NCBI GenBank assembly: GCA_038870455.1
Contig: JAWCPB010000005.1
Span: 1-40,471, forward strand
From: Candidatus Micrarchaeia archaeon
GTDB taxonomy: Archaea > Micrarchaeota > Micrarchaeia > Burarchaeales > JACRGF01
Length of the DNA: 40,471 nucleotides
Reading direction: 5' to 3'
The stretch's first letter is position 1, and the number at the start of each line of letters is the position of its first letter. Positions 63-39,074 of this stretch are shown piece by piece. The notes under the pieces were generated by a model. That model saw nothing but the letters and a program-made list of their open reading frames with translations, did not search any database and was not told where the DNA came from. The position numbers were made by a program, and so were the translations under genes.

Positions 63-120
63 CACAAGAGGTGACTCGACTGAAATACTCCCTTTTATTC
101 TACTCGAGTCACCTCTTGTG
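63..120. repeat. Perfect 17-bp inverted repeat with 24-nt spacer
   Basis: 63-79 CACAAGAGGTGACTCGA is the exact reverse complement of 104-120 TCGAGTCACCTCTTGTG. Confidence 0.95.
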
Positions 121-1471
121 AATGGGGGGAACTTCCCCCCTCTGTCTTTTGCTGCCACAGCGCGAGGACTACGGCAGCAACCGTCACCGCGAGTATTATC
201 GCCAGGAAGAGTTTGAATGTTGTCGGAATGTTTTCGCCGACTCCGAGGCCGTAGGCTTCGGGTTGGGGCGGTGGCGCCCTCTGCGCGTATATTATCCGCT
301 GGAAGGAGGCGCTCGCGCTCGTTCCCTGTGTCTTCACTGTGATGGGGAAAGTGTATAAGTTGTTGGGCTCGAGCTCGGGAAGCGACAGGTTCCAGGTCAG
401 TTCCTTGCTTTCGAGCGGCTTGAGATAGACCAGCCTGCTGGTTTCGGTTGCGGCCACTCCGCGCGGCGGGATGAGCAGAAGCGGTGCGAACACGAAGCTG
501 TCCTCGGAGTTGGTTATCTTTACTCTCACGGTTTGGCTGTGCATGTCGCTGTCTGGCAGGGTGAGCTCGAGTGAAACCCTCGGCTGGAACGGCTGCGCTT
601 CCTTTACTGTGATGGAATAGTTTTTGGCGAGCCCGAGCTGCACGCCGATTTCCCCCCTCGCGTGCAGCACGTCCTTTACATAGCTCTGGTCGAGCGCTTC
701 GGCGAGCTTGACGTGCGCGGCGTCGAGCACGAGCAGCTCGTTGAAAGTAGGGTCCGCCGGCACCCAGCCATAGCCCGGCACCCACACTTCGGCCCATCCG
801 TGAAGCCCCCATTCCTGTCCGGTGTTGATGTAGCCCGAGGCGAACCTCGCGGGAAGGCCGAGCGAGCGCGCGAGCGCGAGGAAGAGGTGCGCGTACTCGT
901 CGCACGTTCCCCGCCTGTTGGCGAAGACCCATTCGGACGAGTAATTGACTTCTCCGAGTTGCCTGTCGTACTGCACGTTGTTGTAAGTCCATTCCACGAG
1001 GCCCGCGAGGACCTCTAACGCGTCATTGCTTCCGTTTGCAATTCCCAACGCGGTCTCCCGAATTTCCAGCGTCACGACCACGAGCGGCGAGGCGCGCGTG
1101 TAGTCGGCGAGCTCCGGGGGCACCGGGTAGGGGTAGGGAACCGGCCGGGTTATGTTGTTGCTCCTGTAATCCACGCTCACCGAAGAAGAGACGGCGATTG
1201 TAGTCTGGTTCGGCACGTCGGCGTCGAAAAGCATTCTCGCTCCGTCGCCGGTCCCCCAGGAGAACGCGTGCGTCGTGGCATAAACCCCAACGCGCTGGTT
1301 GGTGTCATTGACCGGCGCGAGCCCGTAGAGGGTCACGGGGTACGGGAACGGCTGGCCCCTCGCCTCGATGAACCACTCGGTGCTCGCGTCCGCCCGCATC
1401 GCCCCCATTTCCCTTACATTCAGCGCGGCGGAGCAAGCGAGCATGAGGAGGAGAAGGAAAATGCGTTTCAT
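95..1471 (-). CDS. Secreted, membrane-anchored transglutaminase-like (TGase/cysteine protease fold) protein
   Basis: N-terminal signal peptide; triad motifs GTCDEYAHLF, HGWAEVW, DPT; C-terminal TM helix; several N-X-S/T sequons. Confidence 0.88.
   Translation of the reverse strand: MKRIFLLLLMLACSAALNVREMGAMRADASTEWFIEARGQPFPYPVTLYGLAPVNDTNQRVGVYATTHAFSWGTGDGARMLFDADVPNQTTIAVSSSVSVDYRSNNITRPVPYPYPVPPELADYTRASPLVVVTLEIRETALGIANGSNDALEVLAGLVEWTYNNVQYDRQLGEVNYSSEWVFANRRGTCDEYAHLFLALARSLGLPARFASGYINTGQEWGLHGWAEVWVPGYGWVPADPTFNELLVLDAAHVKLAEALDQSYVKDVLHARGEIGVQLGLAKNYSITVKEAQPFQPRVSLELTLPDSDMHSQTVRVKITNSEDSFVFAPLLLIPPRGVAATETSRLVYLKPLESKELTWNLSLPELEPNNLYTFPITVKTQGTSASASFQRIIYAQRAPPPQPEAYGLGVGENIPTTFKLFLAIILAVTVAAVVLALWQQKTEGGSSPHSQEVTRVE
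124..140. repeat. Palindrome GGGGGGAA-C-TTCCCCCC
   Basis: 8-bp perfect arms read directly. Confidence 0.85.
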
Positions 1472-1815
1472 TCTCTTCCCTTTAAGCGGTTTTTCTCATC
1501 TACGAAAACGATTTTTGGCTTCAGCCTCCACGCCTCGTTTTCCGCCAGGACCTCCTCCGCAGCTATTATTATTTCGTCCCCACGCCTGCAAAGCCGTGCG
1601 GCCGCGCCCATCACAGTAACCTCCCCTCTTTTTCCCGGCACAACGTAAGTCCGGAACCTCTTTCCGTTCGAAACGTTCCAGACATGGACCATCTCGTGCG
1701 GCAGCATGCCCGCTGCTTTGAGCAGCCCGCTATCGACAGCCAGGCTTCCAGAGTAATGCAGCTTCGTTCCCGTCACTCTCGCGCCGTGGATTTTTCCCCT
1801 CATCATAACGCGCAT
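1468..1815 (-). CDS. panD: Pyruvoyl-dependent aspartate 1-decarboxylase
   Basis: Start reassigned to ATG at 1815 (MRVMMRGKIH); KIH, HYSG/SL self-cleavage site, NGKRFRTY, GAAAR; ATGA overlap with next gene. Confidence 0.9.
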   Translation of the reverse strand: MRVMMRGKIHGARVTGTKLHYSGSLAVDSGLLKAAGMLPHEMVHVWNVSNGKRFRTYVVPGKRGEVTVMGAAARLCRRGDEIIIAAEEVLAENEAWRLKPKIVFVDEKNRLKGRE

Positions 1816-1835
1816 GCTGATACCAGAGACGCTCC

Positions 1836-1849
1836 AAATATAAATATAT
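1836..1849. promoter_or_regulatory. Shared TATA-box region of divergent promoters
   Basis: AAATATAAATATAT in the 49-nt gap between divergent starts at 1815 and 1865. Confidence 0.65.
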
Positions 1850-1864
1850 GCGGCAAATAGCTTC

Positions 1865-3958
1865 ATGCGCCGGCTGTTCCTGGCGTTTCTGCTCGCCTCC
1901 GCTTGTTTTGCCGAGAAGATCGACAACCCCCAGCTCGTGACTCTCATCGAGGGCGTTGTCGTTGAGGAAGGGGTTGTGCGCGCCCTCTCAGGCGAGATCA
2001 CCGAGCTGCGCCTCAACCTTTCCGTGCCGCAGCAGAGCGCCAGGCAGGACGCGTTTTACTCCGGCGCGACGCAACGCGATGACGAGGGGAATTCGGTTGC
2101 AACGATTTTCGTTCCGAACCCGCCGAATCCCTTCCCCTACAGCATTCAGACTCGCATCACGGCCCGCTCTCACCAGACCACATTTCTTCCCCTGAACTAC
2201 TCGGTTCCATCCGAGCTCCTGGCCTACGCGCGCCCGACGCCCCGCATCCAGAGCGATGACCCACGCATTCAGAGGCTGGCCCGCGAGATAACCGCAGGCT
2301 CCCGCGACGACTTCGAGAGGGTTGCCAGGCTCGCCGTATTCACCCACGACTATCTGAAGTATGACGCTTCGCTGGCGGGCGAGGTGAAGGACGCCCTGTG
2401 GGCCCTCGACAACAAGCGCGGCGTGTGCGTCGAGTACAGCGCGCTGTTCGCCGCGCTCGCCCGCTCGCTGGGCTTTCCCACGCGCTCCGTGGCCGGCTAT
2501 GCGGTGAGCGAGGACGGCGAGTGGCTGGGGCACGCTTGGAACGAGGTTTTTCTCGGCGAATGGGTTCCCGTGGACGCCACTTGGCTGGAGGTGGGCTCGC
2601 TTGACGCCACGCACATTGAGATGCTGCGGGCGAACGACAAGACTTTCGGCAACAACCTCAGCGTGCTCATGCGGCCGGGCACTCGGATAGACTGGAGCAA
2701 CCGGAACATGCTGGGAAGCGAGGTTCAGGCTGTGCGGCCCACGCGCGTCGAGCTCGCGCAGCCTGAAAGCAGCTTCGACCTCGAGCTCGCCTCCCCGGTT
2801 CTACAGCCCGGGGGGGAAACAATTGCTTGGCTCGAGTTTCCAGCAAGCGATTACCGCGTTGTCGAGGCGTCCCTCGAGCCGTGCAAGGGTCCTTCCGTCA
2901 TTGCCTCGGTTGAGGACAGGGAGCGCGCGCTTATCACAAGGCCGGGTGAGAAGGTCGCCGTGGCTTGGCGCGTCCGCGCCTCTCCCTCGCTTTCTTCTTC
3001 GTTCATCTACACCTGCCCACTTTTACTGAACTCTCCCTTTCTCGAGGAGAGGCCTGTCGAGCTCAGGATAGAGCCCGGCGCACCCAGCGCTTCCCTCGAG
3101 GCCTGGCTTTCCTCCAACCAGCTTCTGCCCGGCGGAGAGCAAACCGTTTTCTTCAAGGTGAAGGGCGGCTCGCCCTCGAAAATAGGGGTTGCGGCGGGCG
3201 AAGGCGTTTTCTTCTCCCAGGCCCCCTCGCCCGGCCTGACCGGCTCGCTCTCTTATTCCCCGCGCGGCCTCGGCTTCCAGAAAATATTCGTTTTCACCGA
3301 CCAGGGTGGCGTGGTCGAACTGAACTTCAACATCACCCACTCGCTCGCTCTCTTTCTCCAGAATGCCTCCTTCCCCACCAGCCTGCTCGAGGGAAGCCTC
3401 GCGAGCGTGAACGTCTCGCTTTTCCTCAACCGCTCGGTTCCCGGAAGCGTCCGGCTCTCGCTTTCCCTAGACAATGAGTCTGATTTTGAGACAGCTGTTT
3501 TCAACGGCTCGGCCAACCTATCTCTTTCTGCTCCCGCCACCGTGCCCGGCGCGCGCGAGCTCATTCTCGTGATAGAGGGAGACGGCACACGCATTGAGCA
3601 GAGGCAGGCGGTTCGCGTTGTGGCAAAGCCGGCGGTCGGCGTTCGCGGAGTTTCCCCGCCTTCCGGAAACTCGACAGTCTTCATCACGCTCTCATTCGTG
3701 GGCGAGCCCACCAATGTCACAATTTCTTCCGATGGACAGGCGGTTCGGCTGCGTCAGGGCGAGTGGGCCGCGCCCCTTCGCATGTTTCCAGGCATGCGCA
3801 ACATAACGATAACTTGGCGCGACGAGTTCGGAAACTTCTATCAGAAGACTGAAGAAGTGTGGGTCCCCAGCACGCCGCTTCCCTGCCTGCCCGCGCTCAT
3901 CGCCGGCTTTGCCTCAGCCCTGCTTTGCCTTCACGGCTTTTTCAAACGCGCGCATTAA
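1865..3958 (+). CDS. Secreted transglutaminase-like protein with C-terminal beta-rich (Ig-like?) region and membrane anchor
   Basis: Signal peptide; GVCVEYSALF, HAWNEV, VDATW triad motifs; many sequons; C-terminal Cys-containing hydrophobic tail followed by basic residues. Confidence 0.88.
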   Translation: MRRLFLAFLLASACFAEKIDNPQLVTLIEGVVVEEGVVRALSGEITELRLNLSVPQQSARQDAFYSGATQRDDEGNSVATIFVPNPPNPFPYSIQTRITARSHQTTFLPLNYSVPSELLAYARPTPRIQSDDPRIQRLAREITAGSRDDFERVARLAVFTHDYLKYDASLAGEVKDALWALDNKRGVCVEYSALFAALARSLGFPTRSVAGYAVSEDGEWLGHAWNEVFLGEWVPVDATWLEVGSLDATHIEMLRANDKTFGNNLSVLMRPGTRIDWSNRNMLGSEVQAVRPTRVELAQPESSFDLELASPVLQPGGETIAWLEFPASDYRVVEASLEPCKGPSVIASVEDRERALITRPGEKVAVAWRVRASPSLSSSFIYTCPLLLNSPFLEERPVELRIEPGAPSASLEAWLSSNQLLPGGEQTVFFKVKGGSPSKIGVAAGEGVFFSQAPSPGLTGSLSYSPRGLGFQKIFVFTDQGGVVELNFNITHSLALFLQNASFPTSLLEGSLASVNVSLFLNRSVPGSVRLSLSLDNESDFETAVFNGSANLSLSAPATVPGARELILVIEGDGTRIEQRQAVRVVAKPAVGVRGVSPPSGNSTVFITLSFVGEPTNVTISSDGQAVRLRQGEWAAPLRMFPGMRNITITWRDEFGNFYQKTEEVWVPSTPLPCLPALIAGFASALLCLHGFFKRAH

Positions 3959-34493: not shown

Positions 34494-34526
34494 CAACTTC
34501 CGGCTAATATACTGTGCTTGTTCTAC

Positions 34527-35804
34527 ATGTTCAAGGATGCGAGCCGCAAGGCCACAAACCCGCCGATTCAGGCCCCCAGCCCGGGCAGGTTCAGAAAGAG
34601 TCTCAAGAACGCGCTCGGCTACGCCGCGGGCTTGCTGCCCGGCGCAGGCATTTTCTTTAAGCTAGCAAAGGACAGGGCAGAGAGGAGGATGGACGCGCAC
34701 GAGAGGGCCATCAGCAACATCAGCAACAGCAACCGCCTCGACGAGCTCTACGAGGTCATCTGCGCCGACATCGCGAGGGACATGGGCTTGGATGAAGTAA
34801 GGATTCTGAGAGTCGAAGCAAACGGGAGGAAAAAGCTCGTTGCGAAAAAGTGGGTCGGCCGAAACGATTTCGCGCCAGAGCAGCACGCCCACGAGCTCGA
34901 GAGGGGAAGCGGCCATGTTTCGAGCATATGCTTCCACGAGAAGAGCATCATCCACCTTTCCGTCACGGGCGGCGAGGCGGTCGTGCACAGGGTCAGGCCG
35001 AACGGCCCTTCAGGGGCGGAGTGGGAAGCCATTGATGTTTCGGGTGAAGAGGCTAAGCTGCTCGAAAACGCGCGCAGGTACGGCATCAGGGAAAAAATCG
35101 CCATCCCGCTGCTCGATGGCGACGAGGTCATTGGCGTCATCGTCGCGGACAACCGCACAACTCAGAAAAAAATCCAGAACCACACTATAAAGTCGCTGGC
35201 CCAGAGGGCCGCCATCGCCTCTCTCACCATAAAAATGATGGAGAGCGCTGTCACCGACAGGCTGACCGGGCTCTTCAACAGGCGCCACTTTGACGATGCC
35301 ATCGGGCCCCACGAGCTTTCGGTCGCGCAGCGCAACAATACGCCATGCTCGGTCATCTACTTCGACATAGACAACTTCAAGTCCATCAACGACGCGTGGG
35401 GGCACAACGTCGGCGACAAAGTGCTCAAGTCGCTCGTGGAGACTGTCAGCAACTATCTCAGGAGGGCTGATGTCTTCGTGCGGTACGGCGGTGAGGAGTT
35501 CGTCATACTACTGCCCGGCACCGACCTTGAGGGGGCTGTTTCGATAGCCAAAAGGGTTTTGAACGCGGTGGCGAGCACGCCTGCGCGCATCACGGACGAA
35601 TCTTTCCTGCCTTTCACCGCCAGCTTCGGCGTAGTGCAATACAACCCTGGCCGCGACCACAGCATCACCGACGTGGTGGAGCGCGCGGACACCGTGCAGT
35701 ACATCGCCAAGAAGTCCGGAAAGAACAGAATTGTTGTTGATCTAGGAGAGCCGGATGAGCTTAAGACCAGGACGATAAAACCCGAGCCTAAAGAAGCAAG
35801 TTAA
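34527..35804 (+). CDS. GAF-GGDEF diguanylate cyclase
   Basis: IAIPLLDGDEVIGVIVADN (GAF end), TDRLTGLFNRR, FDIDNFKSINDAWGHNVGD, RRAD-x5-GGEEF, TASFGV, AD..QY.AKKSGKNR. Confidence 0.95.
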   Translation: MFKDASRKATNPPIQAPSPGRFRKSLKNALGYAAGLLPGAGIFFKLAKDRAERRMDAHERAISNISNSNRLDELYEVICADIARDMGLDEVRILRVEANGRKKLVAKKWVGRNDFAPEQHAHELERGSGHVSSICFHEKSIIHLSVTGGEAVVHRVRPNGPSGAEWEAIDVSGEEAKLLENARRYGIREKIAIPLLDGDEVIGVIVADNRTTQKKIQNHTIKSLAQRAAIASLTIKMMESAVTDRLTGLFNRRHFDDAIGPHELSVAQRNNTPCSVIYFDIDNFKSINDAWGHNVGDKVLKSLVETVSNYLRRADVFVRYGGEEFVILLPGTDLEGAVSIAKRVLNAVASTPARITDESFLPFTASFGVVQYNPGRDHSITDVVERADTVQYIAKKSGKNRIVVDLGEPDELKTRTIKPEPKEAS

Positions 35805-37251
35805 GTCCTTTAATCAGCGCCTCAACGCTCGCCAGCACGATGTCGGTCGCTGCTGCCGAGGCCGAAACCTCCCTCTCGCCTTTCCTCAATCTGATTTTCA
35901 CATCGACGAGCGCGTCCGTTCCTCCCGTGATTGCATCCACGTGGTAAGATTCGAGCTTGACGCCCGTCCCGCCCAACGCGTTTTCGATCGCGTTGATGGC
36001 CGCATCCACCGGCCCATTCCCCGTTCCCGCCGCGCTCTTGAACTCCCCGTTGAGCCTGAGTTTGACGCTCGCGGTCGGTGTGATTTTGTTTCCTGTAGTA
36101 GCGGTGAGCTCCTCAAGCTTCACCCTCCCCTCCCTCGTCGTGCCCAGCACGTCAAAAACTATCGCTTGGAAATCGGCATCGGTCACCTCTTTTCCCTTGT
36201 CACCAAGCTCCTTGACCCGCCTGAAAATCTCTTCAAACTGCTCCCCGCCCGCCTCCACGCCGATTTCCTTCAGCTTGTGCCGCACGCTGTGCCTGCCCGA
36301 GTGCTTGCCCAGCCAGATTCTCCTCCGCTGGCCGATGAGCTCAGGCGTGATCGGCTCGTAAGTCTCGGCGCTCTTGATGACTCCATCCACGTGAATGCCC
36401 GACTCGTGCGTGAAAGCGTTTTTTCCAACAAGGGGCTTGTTGGGTGCCAGCCGCAAGCCCGTTATGCCCTCCACGAAAGCGGACACTTCGGAGAGCTTGT
36501 TGAGCTTGACCGAGTCAATCCCGTAAAAATACTTCAGCCCCACCGCCACCTCCTCGAGAGCGGCGTTTCCCGCCCTCTCGCCCAGCCCATTCACGCAGAC
36601 GTGCAGCTCGGCCGCGCCCGCGGCGACAGCCGCCAGCGAGTTGGCCACCGCAAGCCCCAAGTCATTGTGCCCATGAAAGGCAAGCGGAGCCCGCAGGTTG
36701 GCGAGCGCGCCGAACATCTCCCGCGTCTTCTCAGGGTTCAACACCCCAACGGTGTCGCACACGCACGCCCTGTCCGCGCCCCTCTCAATGCCTTCGCCGA
36801 AAACCTTTCGTAAATACTCCAGCTCCGTCCTGCTGCCGTCTTCGGCCAGAATCTCGACAGCCAGCCCGTGCCGCTTGGCATAATCCACTGCCGCGTTTGA
36901 CATCTCCAGCACCTTCTCCCTCGTGCTGCGGAGCTTCTTCTCGATGTGCAGGTCGCTCGTGGGAATGACCAGGGAAACCGCATCCACGTCGCATTCGAGC
37001 GCGGCGTCAACGTCCCCAACCACCCCCCTGCAGAAGGAGGCGATCTCGGCATCAAGCCCCTCAGTGGTGATGAGCTTTATGGCGCGCCTTTCCCCGGTGC
37101 TCGCCACAGCAGAGCCCGCCTCTATGACATCCACCCCAAGCTCATCGAGCTTCCTCGCGATGAGCAGCTTCTTCTCCGGCGTAAGCGAGAGGCCAGGCGT
37201 CTGTTCGCCATCCCTCAGCGTTGTATCGAGAATGCGCACGCGCCTGCTCAT
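35788..37251 (-). CDS. cimA: (R)-citramalate synthase (CimA/LeuA family)
   Basis: DTTLRDGEQTPG, EAGSA, HGHNDLG, NGLGERAGN, HESGIH, C-terminal GPVDA allosteric domain; N-terminus resembles methanogen CimA from memory, but LeuA is not excluded. Confidence 0.8.
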   Translation of the reverse strand: MSRRVRILDTTLRDGEQTPGLSLTPEKKLLIARKLDELGVDVIEAGSAVASTGERRAIKLITTEGLDAEIASFCRGVVGDVDAALECDVDAVSLVIPTSDLHIEKKLRSTREKVLEMSNAAVDYAKRHGLAVEILAEDGSRTELEYLRKVFGEGIERGADRACVCDTVGVLNPEKTREMFGALANLRAPLAFHGHNDLGLAVANSLAAVAAGAAELHVCVNGLGERAGNAALEEVAVGLKYFYGIDSVKLNKLSEVSAFVEGITGLRLAPNKPLVGKNAFTHESGIHVDGVIKSAETYEPITPELIGQRRRIWLGKHSGRHSVRHKLKEIGVEAGGEQFEEIFRRVKELGDKGKEVTDADFQAIVFDVLGTTREGRVKLEELTATTGNKITPTASVKLRLNGEFKSAAGTGNGPVDAAINAIENALGGTGVKLESYHVDAITGGTDALVDVKIRLRKGEREVSASAAATDIVLASVEALIKGLNLLL

Positions 37252-39074
37252 CCGCCTCTCCTGTTTTTCCAGTAGAGTGTGTTGTAGGCAGCCTCGAAAG
37301 CCTTGATGCTCGCCAGCACAATGTCCGGGCTTGCCCCGAGTCCCACAGCCTTATTCCCCTTTCTGTCCCTCAAGCTCATGGTTACCTCAACAGTCGCCTC
37401 GGTTCCTCCGGTGGAGATGGTCACGCCATAGTCGGTGAGTGAGAACTCCACGCCCCTGCCGGCCAGCGCCTTTTTTATCGCGTTTATGGTGGCATCCACC
37501 GGCCCGTCCCCCTCCCCCTCTTCCGAGTATCTTTTTCCCTCGAAGGAAAGGGTTGCCACGCACCTAGGCTTTGCCCTCGCGCTCGCAGTCACGAGGTAAT
37601 CCTCCACCACCAGCACGCGCCTCTTTGGAGTGATTTTAGTGAAAACCCCTTCCAAAATGCTTTTGAGGTCCGCTCTCGTAACCGGCTTGCCTTTGCCGAT
37701 GAACTCCTCAACAGCCTCGCGGACTTCAGGAATCCGCTCGCGTTCTATGCTGATGTTGAAATTGGCCTTTACAGCCTCCAAAACCTCTTTTTCGCTTGGC
37801 GCTTTCCTGAAAACAACTTTTGTTTTTTCCTCTCGCCTAACAGGAGCCTTTAAATTATATAAACGATTATTTATATATTTCTCTACTTCTTTTATATTTG
37901 GCTCGACGCTCGGGGGCAAAGTAAAGCCCTTGAGGGCAGTTAAAGGATCTTTCAACCCGTTTCCAGTCAGCACGCACACTCCAAGCTTGCCCGCCAGCCT
38001 ATTCTTTAATTTCAGCACCGCAGCCACGCCGGTAGCCGCAGAAGGCTCTACGAAAATGCTTTCCGTGCGCGCAAGAAGCTGTTGTGCTTCAATAATGTCA
38101 TCATCACTCACATCCACGGCTATTCCTTTGCTCTCGCGCAGCGCGGCGAGCGCTTTGGGCGCGTCGTACGGATTTCCTGCCGTAATGGCGGTTGCTATCG
38201 TATCAGGGTGTTCTTCTGACTCGATTTTTCCCTTTTTCTTGAATGCCTTGACTACTGGATTGCAGCCTCTTGCCTGCACGCCGATAAGCTGGGGAAGCTT
38301 GTCTGTGAGGCCGAATTCCTTGAATTCTTTGAACCCTTTCCAAATAGCGGTTATGTTTGTTCCCACGCCTATCGGCACCACGACATAATCCGGCGACTTC
38401 CACCCAAGCTGTTCTATGATTTCGTAAGCCTGGCTCTTCTGCCCCTCCACCCTGAAAGCATAGTCTCCAAGCAGCCAGTACCCAAATTTTTTCGCCATTC
38501 CTGCCGCCAGCTCGAACGCGTCCGCATAAGTTCCCTTTATCTGGAGGAGCCTGGCTCCGTAGCTGAGCACTTGAGCGAGTTTTCCCATGGCCGTTCCATC
38601 AGGCACGAGCACGTGGCAGGGCAGACCGACTTTTGCGGCATATGCAGCCACGCTGGCCGCCATGTTTCCCGTGCTCGCGCACGCCACTGCCTTTGCCTTA
38701 CGCTCCACGGCCTTGGTTATCTCGACGGCAGTCCCCCTGTCCTTGAAAGCCCCCGTGGGGTTCGCTCCCTCGTTTTTCACAAGGATGGGAATGCCCGTCT
38801 CCTTCGCAAAATTCCTGCACTCGTAGAGAGGCGTGCCCCCCTCATCGAGCGTGATCAGCTCGCCTTCAATAGGATAGAATGCCTTGTATTTCGCGTTTTT
38901 CAGCGGCGCGCTCTTGAGCAGCCCCCTGTCGAGCCTTCGCTCAACCAGCCTGTAGTCATATTTCACATCAAGCGGCCCGCCGCACCTGAGGCACCGCGTG
39001 TAAGTCTGTTCCTCACTAAAAGAAGAGCCGCACAGCACGCACTTAAGCTCGTACAGCGGGAATAATGAAAACAC
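37248..39074 (-). CDS. thrC: Threonine synthase fused to LeuA/CimA-type allosteric domain
   Basis: CxxC..CxxC N-terminus, EGGTPL, NPTGAFKDRG (PLP Lys), ASTGN, PIGVG, EPSAA, LTGNGLKD, then ~190 extra aa with GPVDA and DIVLAS. Confidence 0.9.
   Translation of the reverse strand: MFSLFPLYELKCVLCGSSFSEEQTYTRCLRCGGPLDVKYDYRLVERRLDRGLLKSAPLKNAKYKAFYPIEGELITLDEGGTPLYECRNFAKETGIPILVKNEGANPTGAFKDRGTAVEITKAVERKAKAVACASTGNMAASVAAYAAKVGLPCHVLVPDGTAMGKLAQVLSYGARLLQIKGTYADAFELAAGMAKKFGYWLLGDYAFRVEGQKSQAYEIIEQLGWKSPDYVVVPIGVGTNITAIWKGFKEFKEFGLTDKLPQLIGVQARGCNPVVKAFKKKGKIESEEHPDTIATAITAGNPYDAPKALAALRESKGIAVDVSDDDIIEAQQLLARTESIFVEPSAATGVAAVLKLKNRLAGKLGVCVLTGNGLKDPLTALKGFTLPPSVEPNIKEVEKYINNRLYNLKAPVRREEKTKVVFRKAPSEKEVLEAVKANFNISIERERIPEVREAVEEFIGKGKPVTRADLKSILEGVFTKITPKRRVLVVEDYLVTASARAKPRCVATLSFEGKRYSEEGEGDGPVDATINAIKKALAGRGVEFSLTDYGVTISTGGTEATVEVTMSLRDRKGNKAVGLGASPDIVLASIKAFEAAYNTLYWKNRRGG

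Follow-up and report, generated by a model that had tools for sequence, protein, structure and literature searches.

The window analysed here is the whole contig JAWCPB010000005.1 (40,471 nucleotides; C5 of the assembly) from a Candidatus Micrarchaeia archaeon whose genome comprises 1.04 Mb and is 90% complete. On its reverse strand the window carries a gene (37248..39074) in which an enzyme resembling threonine synthase (ThrC) and dependent on pyridoxal 5'-phosphate (PLP) is fused to a regulatory module of the type present in LeuA and CimA. The fusion is real, ancient and widespread. On balance, with little more than even confidence, the sequence comparisons point to an isoleucine-sensing, 2-oxobutyrate-forming stand-in for IlvA and not to a threonine synthase, and the name "threonine synthase", carried by the fused relatives wherever the database gives them a name, is probably wrong. 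An earlier note on this DNA had read the gene mainly as a threonine synthase brought under a sensor for branched-chain amino acids and had mentioned a PLP enzyme repurposed to make 2-oxobutyrate as an alternative; it is the alternative that the evidence favours.

The open reading frame (ORF) starts with GTG and encodes a product of 608 amino acids, the coding sequence covering 37251..39074 (-) and the stop codon 37248-37250. Pfam detected only PALP and LeuA_dimer, both on the same chain, so that the fusion proposed in the earlier note was borne out; neither an HMGL-like barrel nor an ACT-like Thr_dehydrat_C domain was found by Pfam in the protein. The PALP (fold-type II PLP) catalytic domain, delimited by Pfam and alignments, covers residues 74-371 (37962..38855 (-); E 5.1e-81), and the LeuA_dimer (PF08502) allosteric domain residues 465-600 (37275..37682 (-); E 8.7e-26, 90.8 bits against a cutoff of 24.9), the latter match including profile positions 2-130 of 131. 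The catalytic domain is preceded by a zinc-ribbon-like segment with four cysteines at residues ~10-40 (38955..39047 (-); C12, C15, C28 and C31), recognised from conservation and from the AlphaFold2 (AF2) model, which has strands at 8-12 and 34-39 within it. C12, C15 and C28 were present in all 76 fused sequences compared and C31 in 75. Between the two domains lies a family-specific helical linker at residues ~385-464 (37683..37922 (-)), delimited by the NF002086 alignment, the AF2 model and the module search. Towards its C-terminus the linker matches the accessory subdomain II region of isopropylmalate synthase (IPMS) models, the NF002086 alignment pairing residues 420-604 with profile positions 328-505. 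The AF2 model (mean predicted local distance difference test, pLDDT, 83.6; predicted template modelling score 0.73) consists of a ThrC-like body, a low-pLDDT hinge at 372-383, the helical linker (helices 394-479) and a beta-alpha-beta domain, and its top Foldseek matches were solved threonine synthases.

The tail that follows the motif LTGNGLKD (residues 369-376) was identified as a LeuA/CimA regulatory module, as the earlier note had supposed, by the PF08502 match and by its 39% identity to the tail of the synthase encoded immediately downstream. The tail is longer than was first estimated, ~232 instead of ~190 amino acids, of which ~155 indeed align with the neighbour. The BLASTP alignment joins residues 446-600 of the fusion with residues 337-486 of the synthase (156 columns, E 1e-20) and includes all four pairs of short strings by which the resemblance had been noticed by eye. 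The similarity of the tail to the LeuA-type paralogue of the same genome was weaker (28% identity, E 4e-14). Among solved structures the module had a sole match, the regulatory domain of Leptospira CimA (3F6G, phmmer E 1.3e-7), and its alignment with IPMS models takes in accessory subdomain II as well as the regulatory domain. A G-x-G-P-V-D loop at residues 522-527 of the LeuA_dimer domain is conserved in the fused family. The LeuA_dimer domain is described as binding leucine in IPMS and isoleucine in CimA (PMC9860122, PMC13381585), and by analogy isoleucine would most likely be the effector also of the fused module.

Also a stand-alone form of the domain was observed. A genome of the candidate phyla radiation (CPR), G045, encodes a LeuA_dimer protein of 137 amino acids (locus L130, G045:C5:31500-37500; 2686-3099 (-)), and after 62 nt its gene is followed on that strand by the gene of a genuine class-II ThrC (1340-2623 (-); Thr_synth_N, PALP and THR4_C). 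The same genome carries the fusion in a leu/ilv operon, and the stand-alone pairing is a single case.

The active site of the catalytic domain combines conserved and replaced positions. The PLP lysine K111, in the FKDRG motif, aligns with K61 of Thermus thermophilus ThrC and K69 of Mycobacterium tuberculosis ThrC and was found in 76 of 76 fused sequences, as were M138, G203, D204, Y205, R208 and D304; T135 and the EGQK and TGNGLKDP motifs are conserved as well. The fused clade departs from canonical ThrC at positions where the latter does not vary, which speaks against the function first assumed. All 14 canonical sequences have T, N, S and one extra residue at the places of the clade-specific M138, G203, D204 and Y205, and position 237 (V in the window), which is N in canonical ThrC, was C, V, F, A, M or S in 75 of the 76 fused sequences. 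When 43 fused sequences were compared with the 14 canonical ones, M138, A139, Y183, G203 and D204 stood against T, S, F, N and S, with the differences at or near 100% within each group. Further, the fused clade lacks one residue after D204-Y205 and reads G-x-G-T-N in place of the canonical G-N-A-G-N.

In the alignment with the 1UIM chain, M138, G203, D204 and V237 correspond to T88, N154, S155 and N188 of T. thermophilus ThrC, and K61, T85 and R160 of that enzyme are retained. We take T88, N154, S155, R160 and N188, the identities and numbering of which were checked, to form the site that holds the phosphate of O-phosphohomoserine. Of these positions R208 (R160) alone is kept in the fusion, and the glycine, aspartate, methionine and hydrophobic residues now occupying the others would argue against binding of that phosphate. 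Family scores were mixed: the fusion passed the broad ThrC model TIGR00260, remained below the cutoffs of five stricter ThrC models (NF006050, with 271.6 against 303, NF004170, NF005035, NF004996 and NF006205) and was also far below those of the IlvA models (TIGR01127, 123.8-125 bits against 378.75; TIGR01124, 62.5 against 411.3).

The same architecture, of which the earlier note had suggested a survey, recurred among the relatives. The best 120 matches among 5.8 billion proteins all contained PF00291 and PF08502 and were 561-625 amino acids long, the closest of them being labelled Candidatus Micrarchaeia. A scan of the GTDB species-representative genomes found 443 relatives, of which 80 loci were kept, and all 80 match through at least residue 563 of the fusion. 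The hosts of the kept loci include Micrarchaeota, Woese-, Nanohalo- and Iainarchaeota among the archaea and NC10/Methylomirabilota, Peregrinibacteria/Peribacteria, Gracilibacteria and other Patescibacteria among the bacteria, together with a few other groups. A search with the 229-amino-acid C-terminal module alone gave 741 cluster representatives at E ≤ 1e-3, a number that fell to 14 at E ≤ 1e-30. Whole-length matches to the module were 12 full-length proteins of 600-633 amino acids, all of them fused, and the first ordinary LeuA-type proteins came in at about E 1e-12.

In a tree of 85 ThrC-family sequences, built by a quick search with no bootstrap, the 43 fused sequences formed one clade (Shimodaira–Hasegawa-like approximate likelihood ratio 99), separate from the clades of canonical class-I ThrC, MetM-like sequences and class-II ThrC; the class-II rows stood on a branch of length 3.1 inside the canonical clade, which is probably an artefact. 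Since the fused sequences form one clade, the tree indicates a single origin of the fusion, and recurrent independent fusions were ruled out on the same ground. An assembly chimera was ruled out by the presence of the architecture in independent assemblies. As regards reads over the junction, a Logan contig (run X1) spans 37000-38252 without a difference; the run is possibly from the source sample and then not independent. A metatranscriptome of the same study (X3) contained nothing matching the stretch, which is no evidence either way on expression. A search of literature full texts, with supplementary files outside it, produced no description of the architecture or of its function, in agreement with the earlier note, whose author knew of no characterised example.

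The gene neighbourhoods of the fusion were counted in 75 of the 80 loci; the remaining five (L028, L034, L049, L059 and L078) were dropped, the ORF caller having failed to recover the fusion ORF. The recurrent neighbours were IlvE (20 loci), IlvB (19), IlvD (16), IlvC (15), RidA (15), PanE (11) and IlvN (8), and an ilv gene or RidA was near the fusion in 34 of the 75 loci. No hom or thrB cluster was conspicuous among the recurrent neighbour clusters of these loci. RidA was in all 15 cases on the same strand as the fusion and in 13 within two genes of it; RidA is reported to turn the enamine/imine products of PLP-dependent threonine/serine dehydratases into keto acids (PMC3565831). In the ilv operons of CPR bacteria and DPANN archaea the fusion (FUS) occupies the ilvA slot, as in FUS-IlvE-IlvD-IlvC-IlvB, IlvD-IlvB-IlvN-FUS-RidA-IlvE-IlvC and LeuA-LeuC-LeuB-FUS-IlvD-IlvB-IlvC-RidA, and in another micrarchaeote (L085) the order is FUS-IlvB-IlvN-IlvC-IlvD-IlvE. 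The NC10 loci have other surroundings: in L014, L020, L021, L024, L029 and others the fusion repeatedly has behind it a convergent PutA gene (proline dehydrogenase/aldehyde dehydrogenase) and a PanE gene (ketopantoate reductase), or it is flanked by Zincin_1 and HhH-GPD genes, in place of ilv genes.

Co-occurrence was examined in 50 fusion-bearing genomes, taken from 50 of the 80 loci. IlvC was present in 45 of them, and an IlvA-like match at E ≤ 1e-40 was absent from 38, gene absences being uncertain in this material because most of the genomes are metagenome-assembled. A second ThrC above the cutoff was found in 35 of the 50 genomes. ThrB above the cutoff was found in 20, and in three genomes (G027, G044 and G049) it adjoins the other ThrC. 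The fusion was the only LeuA_dimer protein in 12 of the 50. Across genomes the fused gene thus behaves like ilvA and not like thrC, again contrary to the first reading.

Five genomes with no ThrC-family gene besides the fusion were inspected: four, G022 among them, lack homoserine dehydrogenase, all five lack thrB, and IlvC is present in four. As to LeuA-family synthases, G003, G013 and G025 have one each and G022 has none. The last-mentioned genome, a single chromosome record of 1.37 Mb, has IlvC, and neither IlvA, LeuA/CimA, another ThrC, thrB nor homoserine dehydrogenase was found in it. Judged by its gene content, the fusion would there be the only visible source of 2-oxobutyrate, and threonine the only plausible substrate.

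In the window's own phylum the full-length fusion was found in three of the 151 genomes sampled and any ThrC-like gene in 21. As these were too few for a test of complementarity, 121 genomes of the CPR class of G025 were used instead; they included 26 with the fusion, 36 with IlvC and eight with an IlvA-like gene. The fusion was present in 26 of the 36 IlvC-positive and in none of the 85 IlvC-negative genomes (Fisher p 1.3e-18). Among the IlvC-positive genomes, a full-length IlvA-like gene occurred in none of the 26 with the fusion and in five of the ten without it (Fisher p 6.7e-4); the genomes are related, so both p values overstate the significance. Taken with the placement in ilv operons, the restriction to IlvC-positive genomes points to the isoleucine/valine pathway.

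In the same sample, the fused gene of one genome (G242:C22:16547-19608) contains 40 in-frame TGA codons and the IlvC gene of that genome 12, and the IlvA-like genes of two other genomes, G234 and G246, contain 22 and 12. This looks like a lineage in which TGA is read as a sense codon.

The window's own genome was surveyed for the pathways concerned. It contains six PALP genes, three of them of the ThrC family. The ThrC on contig C26 passes the strict model PRK08197 (NF006050; 313.8 bits against a cutoff of 303) as well as TIGR00260 (332.9), so a canonical ThrC is already present. A GHMP-type thrB was not found in the genome; it does encode an alternative homoserine kinase (TIGR02535, 509 bits; cutoff 446). 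With a canonical ThrC and this kinase, the threonine pathway is complete without the fusion. IlvA was not found in this genome, its best match to an ilvA model being the fusion itself (125 bits against a cutoff of 379), and IlvC, IlvD, LeuB, LeuC and RidA are all present.

The two other ThrC-family genes of the genome were also looked at. At C26:12275-15106 (L005, L002) the genes of the canonical ThrC and of the second LeuA-type synthase adjoin each other in divergent orientation, a pair that recurs in the congener G001 on contig C7. The genome thus has two separate ThrC-family/LeuA-family gene pairs, which may hint at the origin of the fusion. The third paralogue, of 418 amino acids (C2:5228-6547; L008:1279-2535 (+)), lies in a sulfur-carrier cluster beside a MoeB/ThiF-type E1 gene and two CysK/CysM-type genes and groups with a separate clade that was found also in NC10 genomes.

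According to the proposed mechanism, a PLP domain of the ThrC fold, joined by the helical linker to a CimA/IPMS LeuA_dimer module, would dehydrate and deaminate L-threonine to 2-oxobutyrate, the first committed intermediate of isoleucine. Remodelling of the pocket for the O-phosphohomoserine phosphate would have made a weak side activity, known from ordinary threonine synthases, the main one. Binding of the end product, most likely isoleucine as in CimA, to the C-terminal module would switch the enzyme off, a role that in IlvA falls to the ACT-like domains. Such a side activity has been described: the ThrC of Bacillus subtilis is reported to have a weak threonine-dehydratase activity exploited by older ilvA revertants (bioRxiv 10.64898/2026.09.15.751699), that of Microcystis aeruginosa is reported as a bifunctional synthase/deaminase (PMC12172450), and the latter report states that the T. 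thermophilus and B. subtilis enzymes deaminate threonine in vitro.

Several observations weigh against the fusion being a replacement of IlvA. The closest relatives in sequence and fold are true threonine synthases (2ZSJ, E 5e-82, ~45% identity), TIGR00260 is passed with 278.5 bits against a cutoff of 167.1, and the retained R208 could still hold an anionic group. The gene lies outside ilv operons in NC10-type genomes and in the window, where a probable CimA means that a second source of 2-oxobutyrate is not strictly needed. Complementarity with IlvA is not strict: IlvA-like matches occur in 12 of the 50 fusion-bearing genomes (two full-length above the cutoff, ten to a short catalytic domain), and in the CPR class one genome (G235) has the fusion together with a short dehydratase-like match. 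In 15 of the 50 genomes, all small, no ThrC-family gene but the fusion exceeds the cutoff, and these genomes could equally use it as a threonine synthase. The pair in G045 indicates that the LeuA_dimer domain may also partner true threonine synthases. The matches in sequence and fold, the TIGR00260 score, these 15 genomes and the G045 pair, with the conserved PLP lysine, T135, R208, EGQK and TGNGLKDP, speak for a genuine threonine synthase with an acquired LeuA/CimA sensor, a second isoenzyme beside an unregulated ThrC, through which isoleucine or leucine would throttle the supply of threonine for isoleucine. We nevertheless regard this explanation as unlikely. It has to accommodate the replacement of four canonical-invariant positions in 75-76 of the 76 fused sequences, the failure at all five stricter ThrC equivalog cutoffs, the other ThrC in 35 of the 50 genomes with thrB beside that ThrC, and the lack of thrB, and in four cases of homoserine dehydrogenase, in the five sole-fusion genomes; and it leaves both the missing IlvA and the adjacency of RidA unexplained.

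The context and co-occurrence evidence would be the same if the fusion were a gamma-eliminating lyase acting on O-phosphohomoserine (or homoserine), which would yield 2-oxobutyrate directly, as in the alternative of the earlier note, bypass threonine and receive isoleucine feedback through the module. Failure of the phosphate-assisted step makes threonine synthase release 2-oxobutyrate, and one mammalian homologue of ThrC is a phospho-lyase. In the fusion the ThrC scaffold and R208 are kept, and O-phosphohomoserine would be available in the window's genome and in NC10-type genomes. On the other hand, G, D, M and C/V/F stand in place of the presumed phosphate-holding residues, the aspartate among them (position 204) would be unfavourable to a phosphate, and the substrate would be missing in the sole-fusion genomes, so that a lyase of this kind seems rather improbable. 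Very little weight is given to some other fold-type II reaction (beta- or gamma-replacement, or dehydration of serine or another hydroxy-amino acid) or to a regulatory or scaffolding role, with an indirect link to ilv. Repeated diversification of ThrC-like paralogues, as in the one in the sulfur-carrier cluster, the presence of up to five other ThrC-family genes in NC10-type genomes and the NC10 neighbours PanE, PutA and HhH-GPD in place of ilv are compatible with it; the invariance of the PLP lysine and most catalytic motifs makes a non-catalytic role unlikely, and the restriction to IlvC-positive genomes (26/36 against 0/85) and the placement in ilv operons point to the isoleucine/valine pathway.

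As a dedicated dehydratase standing in for IlvA, the fusion would combine features of several known enzymes. It shares with the short class-I ThrC (EC 4.2.3.1; 2ZSJ, 2D1F, 6CGQ, 1UIM) the fold-type II PLP fold at ~45% identity, and with the canonical ThrC of its own genome the type of N-terminal zinc ribbon, but adds 230 amino acids of linker and LeuA_dimer module and sits in ilv, not thr, operons. Like IlvA (EC 4.3.1.19) it would use PLP to catalyse the entry step to isoleucine and would sense the end product with a C-terminal domain; the two share the operon slot by ilvBNCDE and RidA and have largely complementary distributions. Unlike in IlvA, the catalytic domain is derived from ThrC and the sensor is LeuA_dimer, not the ACT-like Thr_dehydrat_C. 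With CimA and LeuA (3F6G/3F6H) it has in common accessory subdomain II, the LeuA_dimer module and the G-x-G-P-V-D loop, but the sensor is attached to an unrelated PLP enzyme and the HMGL-like TIM barrel is missing. The promiscuous ThrC enzymes of B. subtilis and Microcystis aeruginosa (PMC12172450) form 2-oxobutyrate from threonine on a ThrC fold, as is proposed for the fusion; they have not lost the synthase activity and carry no extra regulatory domain, whereas the fusion has both a changed pocket and a sensor.

Special to the window is the translational coupling of the fusion to a probable CimA. The downstream gene (35791..37251 (-)) encodes a LeuA/CimA-family synthase of 487 amino acids, assigned by Pfam (HMGL-like, HCS_D2 and LeuA_dimer) and by identity, and the stop and start codons of the two genes overlap in an ATGA at 37248..37251 (-), read from the sequence and as described before. 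A Shine-Dalgarno-like purine-rich sequence, AGGAGAGG (37255..37262 (-); likewise read from the sequence), sits 4-11 nt 5' of the ATG of the synthase, within the 3' end of the fusion gene. The genome carries two LeuA-family synthases, the gene in the window and the one on C26. Compared with a Methanothermobacter "putative (R)-citramalate synthase", the former shows 59% identity and the latter 47%, and the earlier assignment of the downstream gene as (R)-citramalate synthase CimA is probably correct, the label being plausible at the level of annotation. The coupling is lineage-specific. As a family-wide feature it was ruled out, a LeuA/CimA gene lying within 8 kb of the fusion in four of the 80 loci by tblastn and near it in five of the 75 loci by ORF clustering, and directly downstream only in a 93%-identical relative.

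In the window's archaeon the threonine and the pyruvate routes to 2-oxobutyrate would accordingly be expressed together, with the same kind of sensor on each. Mixed fusion/CimA dimers are conceivable because both proteins carry homologous CimA-type modules, which normally act as dimers, and the fusion itself may be dimeric. That one isoleucine-binding event in such mixed regulatory-domain dimers gates both routes within a single hetero-complex, and that the fusion is at the same time the main isoleucine entry across CPR, DPANN and NC10, is a bold extension to which we give only a slight chance.

The rest of the window contains a few further features. It encodes a replication factor C (RFC) small subunit, an eRF1/Pelota-type protein and ABCE1, which identify it as archaeal. 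A GAF-GGDEF protein of the diguanylate-cyclase type is encoded at 34518-35804 (+) (GGDEF E 2.8e-43) in this archaeal, Micrarchaeia-type genome, and its gene and the convergent CimA-type gene overlap at their 3' ends by 17 nt; in archaea, proteins of the GGDEF type are uncommon. At 95-3958 two adjoining divergent genes encode transglutaminase-core proteins of 458 and 697 amino acids.

If the fusion is indeed a dedicated, isoleucine-regulated source of 2-oxobutyrate, hundreds of genes now called "threonine synthase" would be mislabelled in CPR bacteria, DPANN archaea, NC10/Methylomirabilota and other lineages. A non-orthologous enzyme would close an apparent gap in their isoleucine pathway, where IlvA is missing and CimA frequently is too, and metabolic reconstructions and auxotrophy predictions would change for lineages known almost only from genomes. 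The family would be a clear natural case of the promiscuous dehydratase activity of ThrC turned into a dedicated enzyme, and of an allosteric module moved between unrelated catalytic scaffolds, which would be relevant to enzyme evolution and to the engineering of biosensors and pathways.

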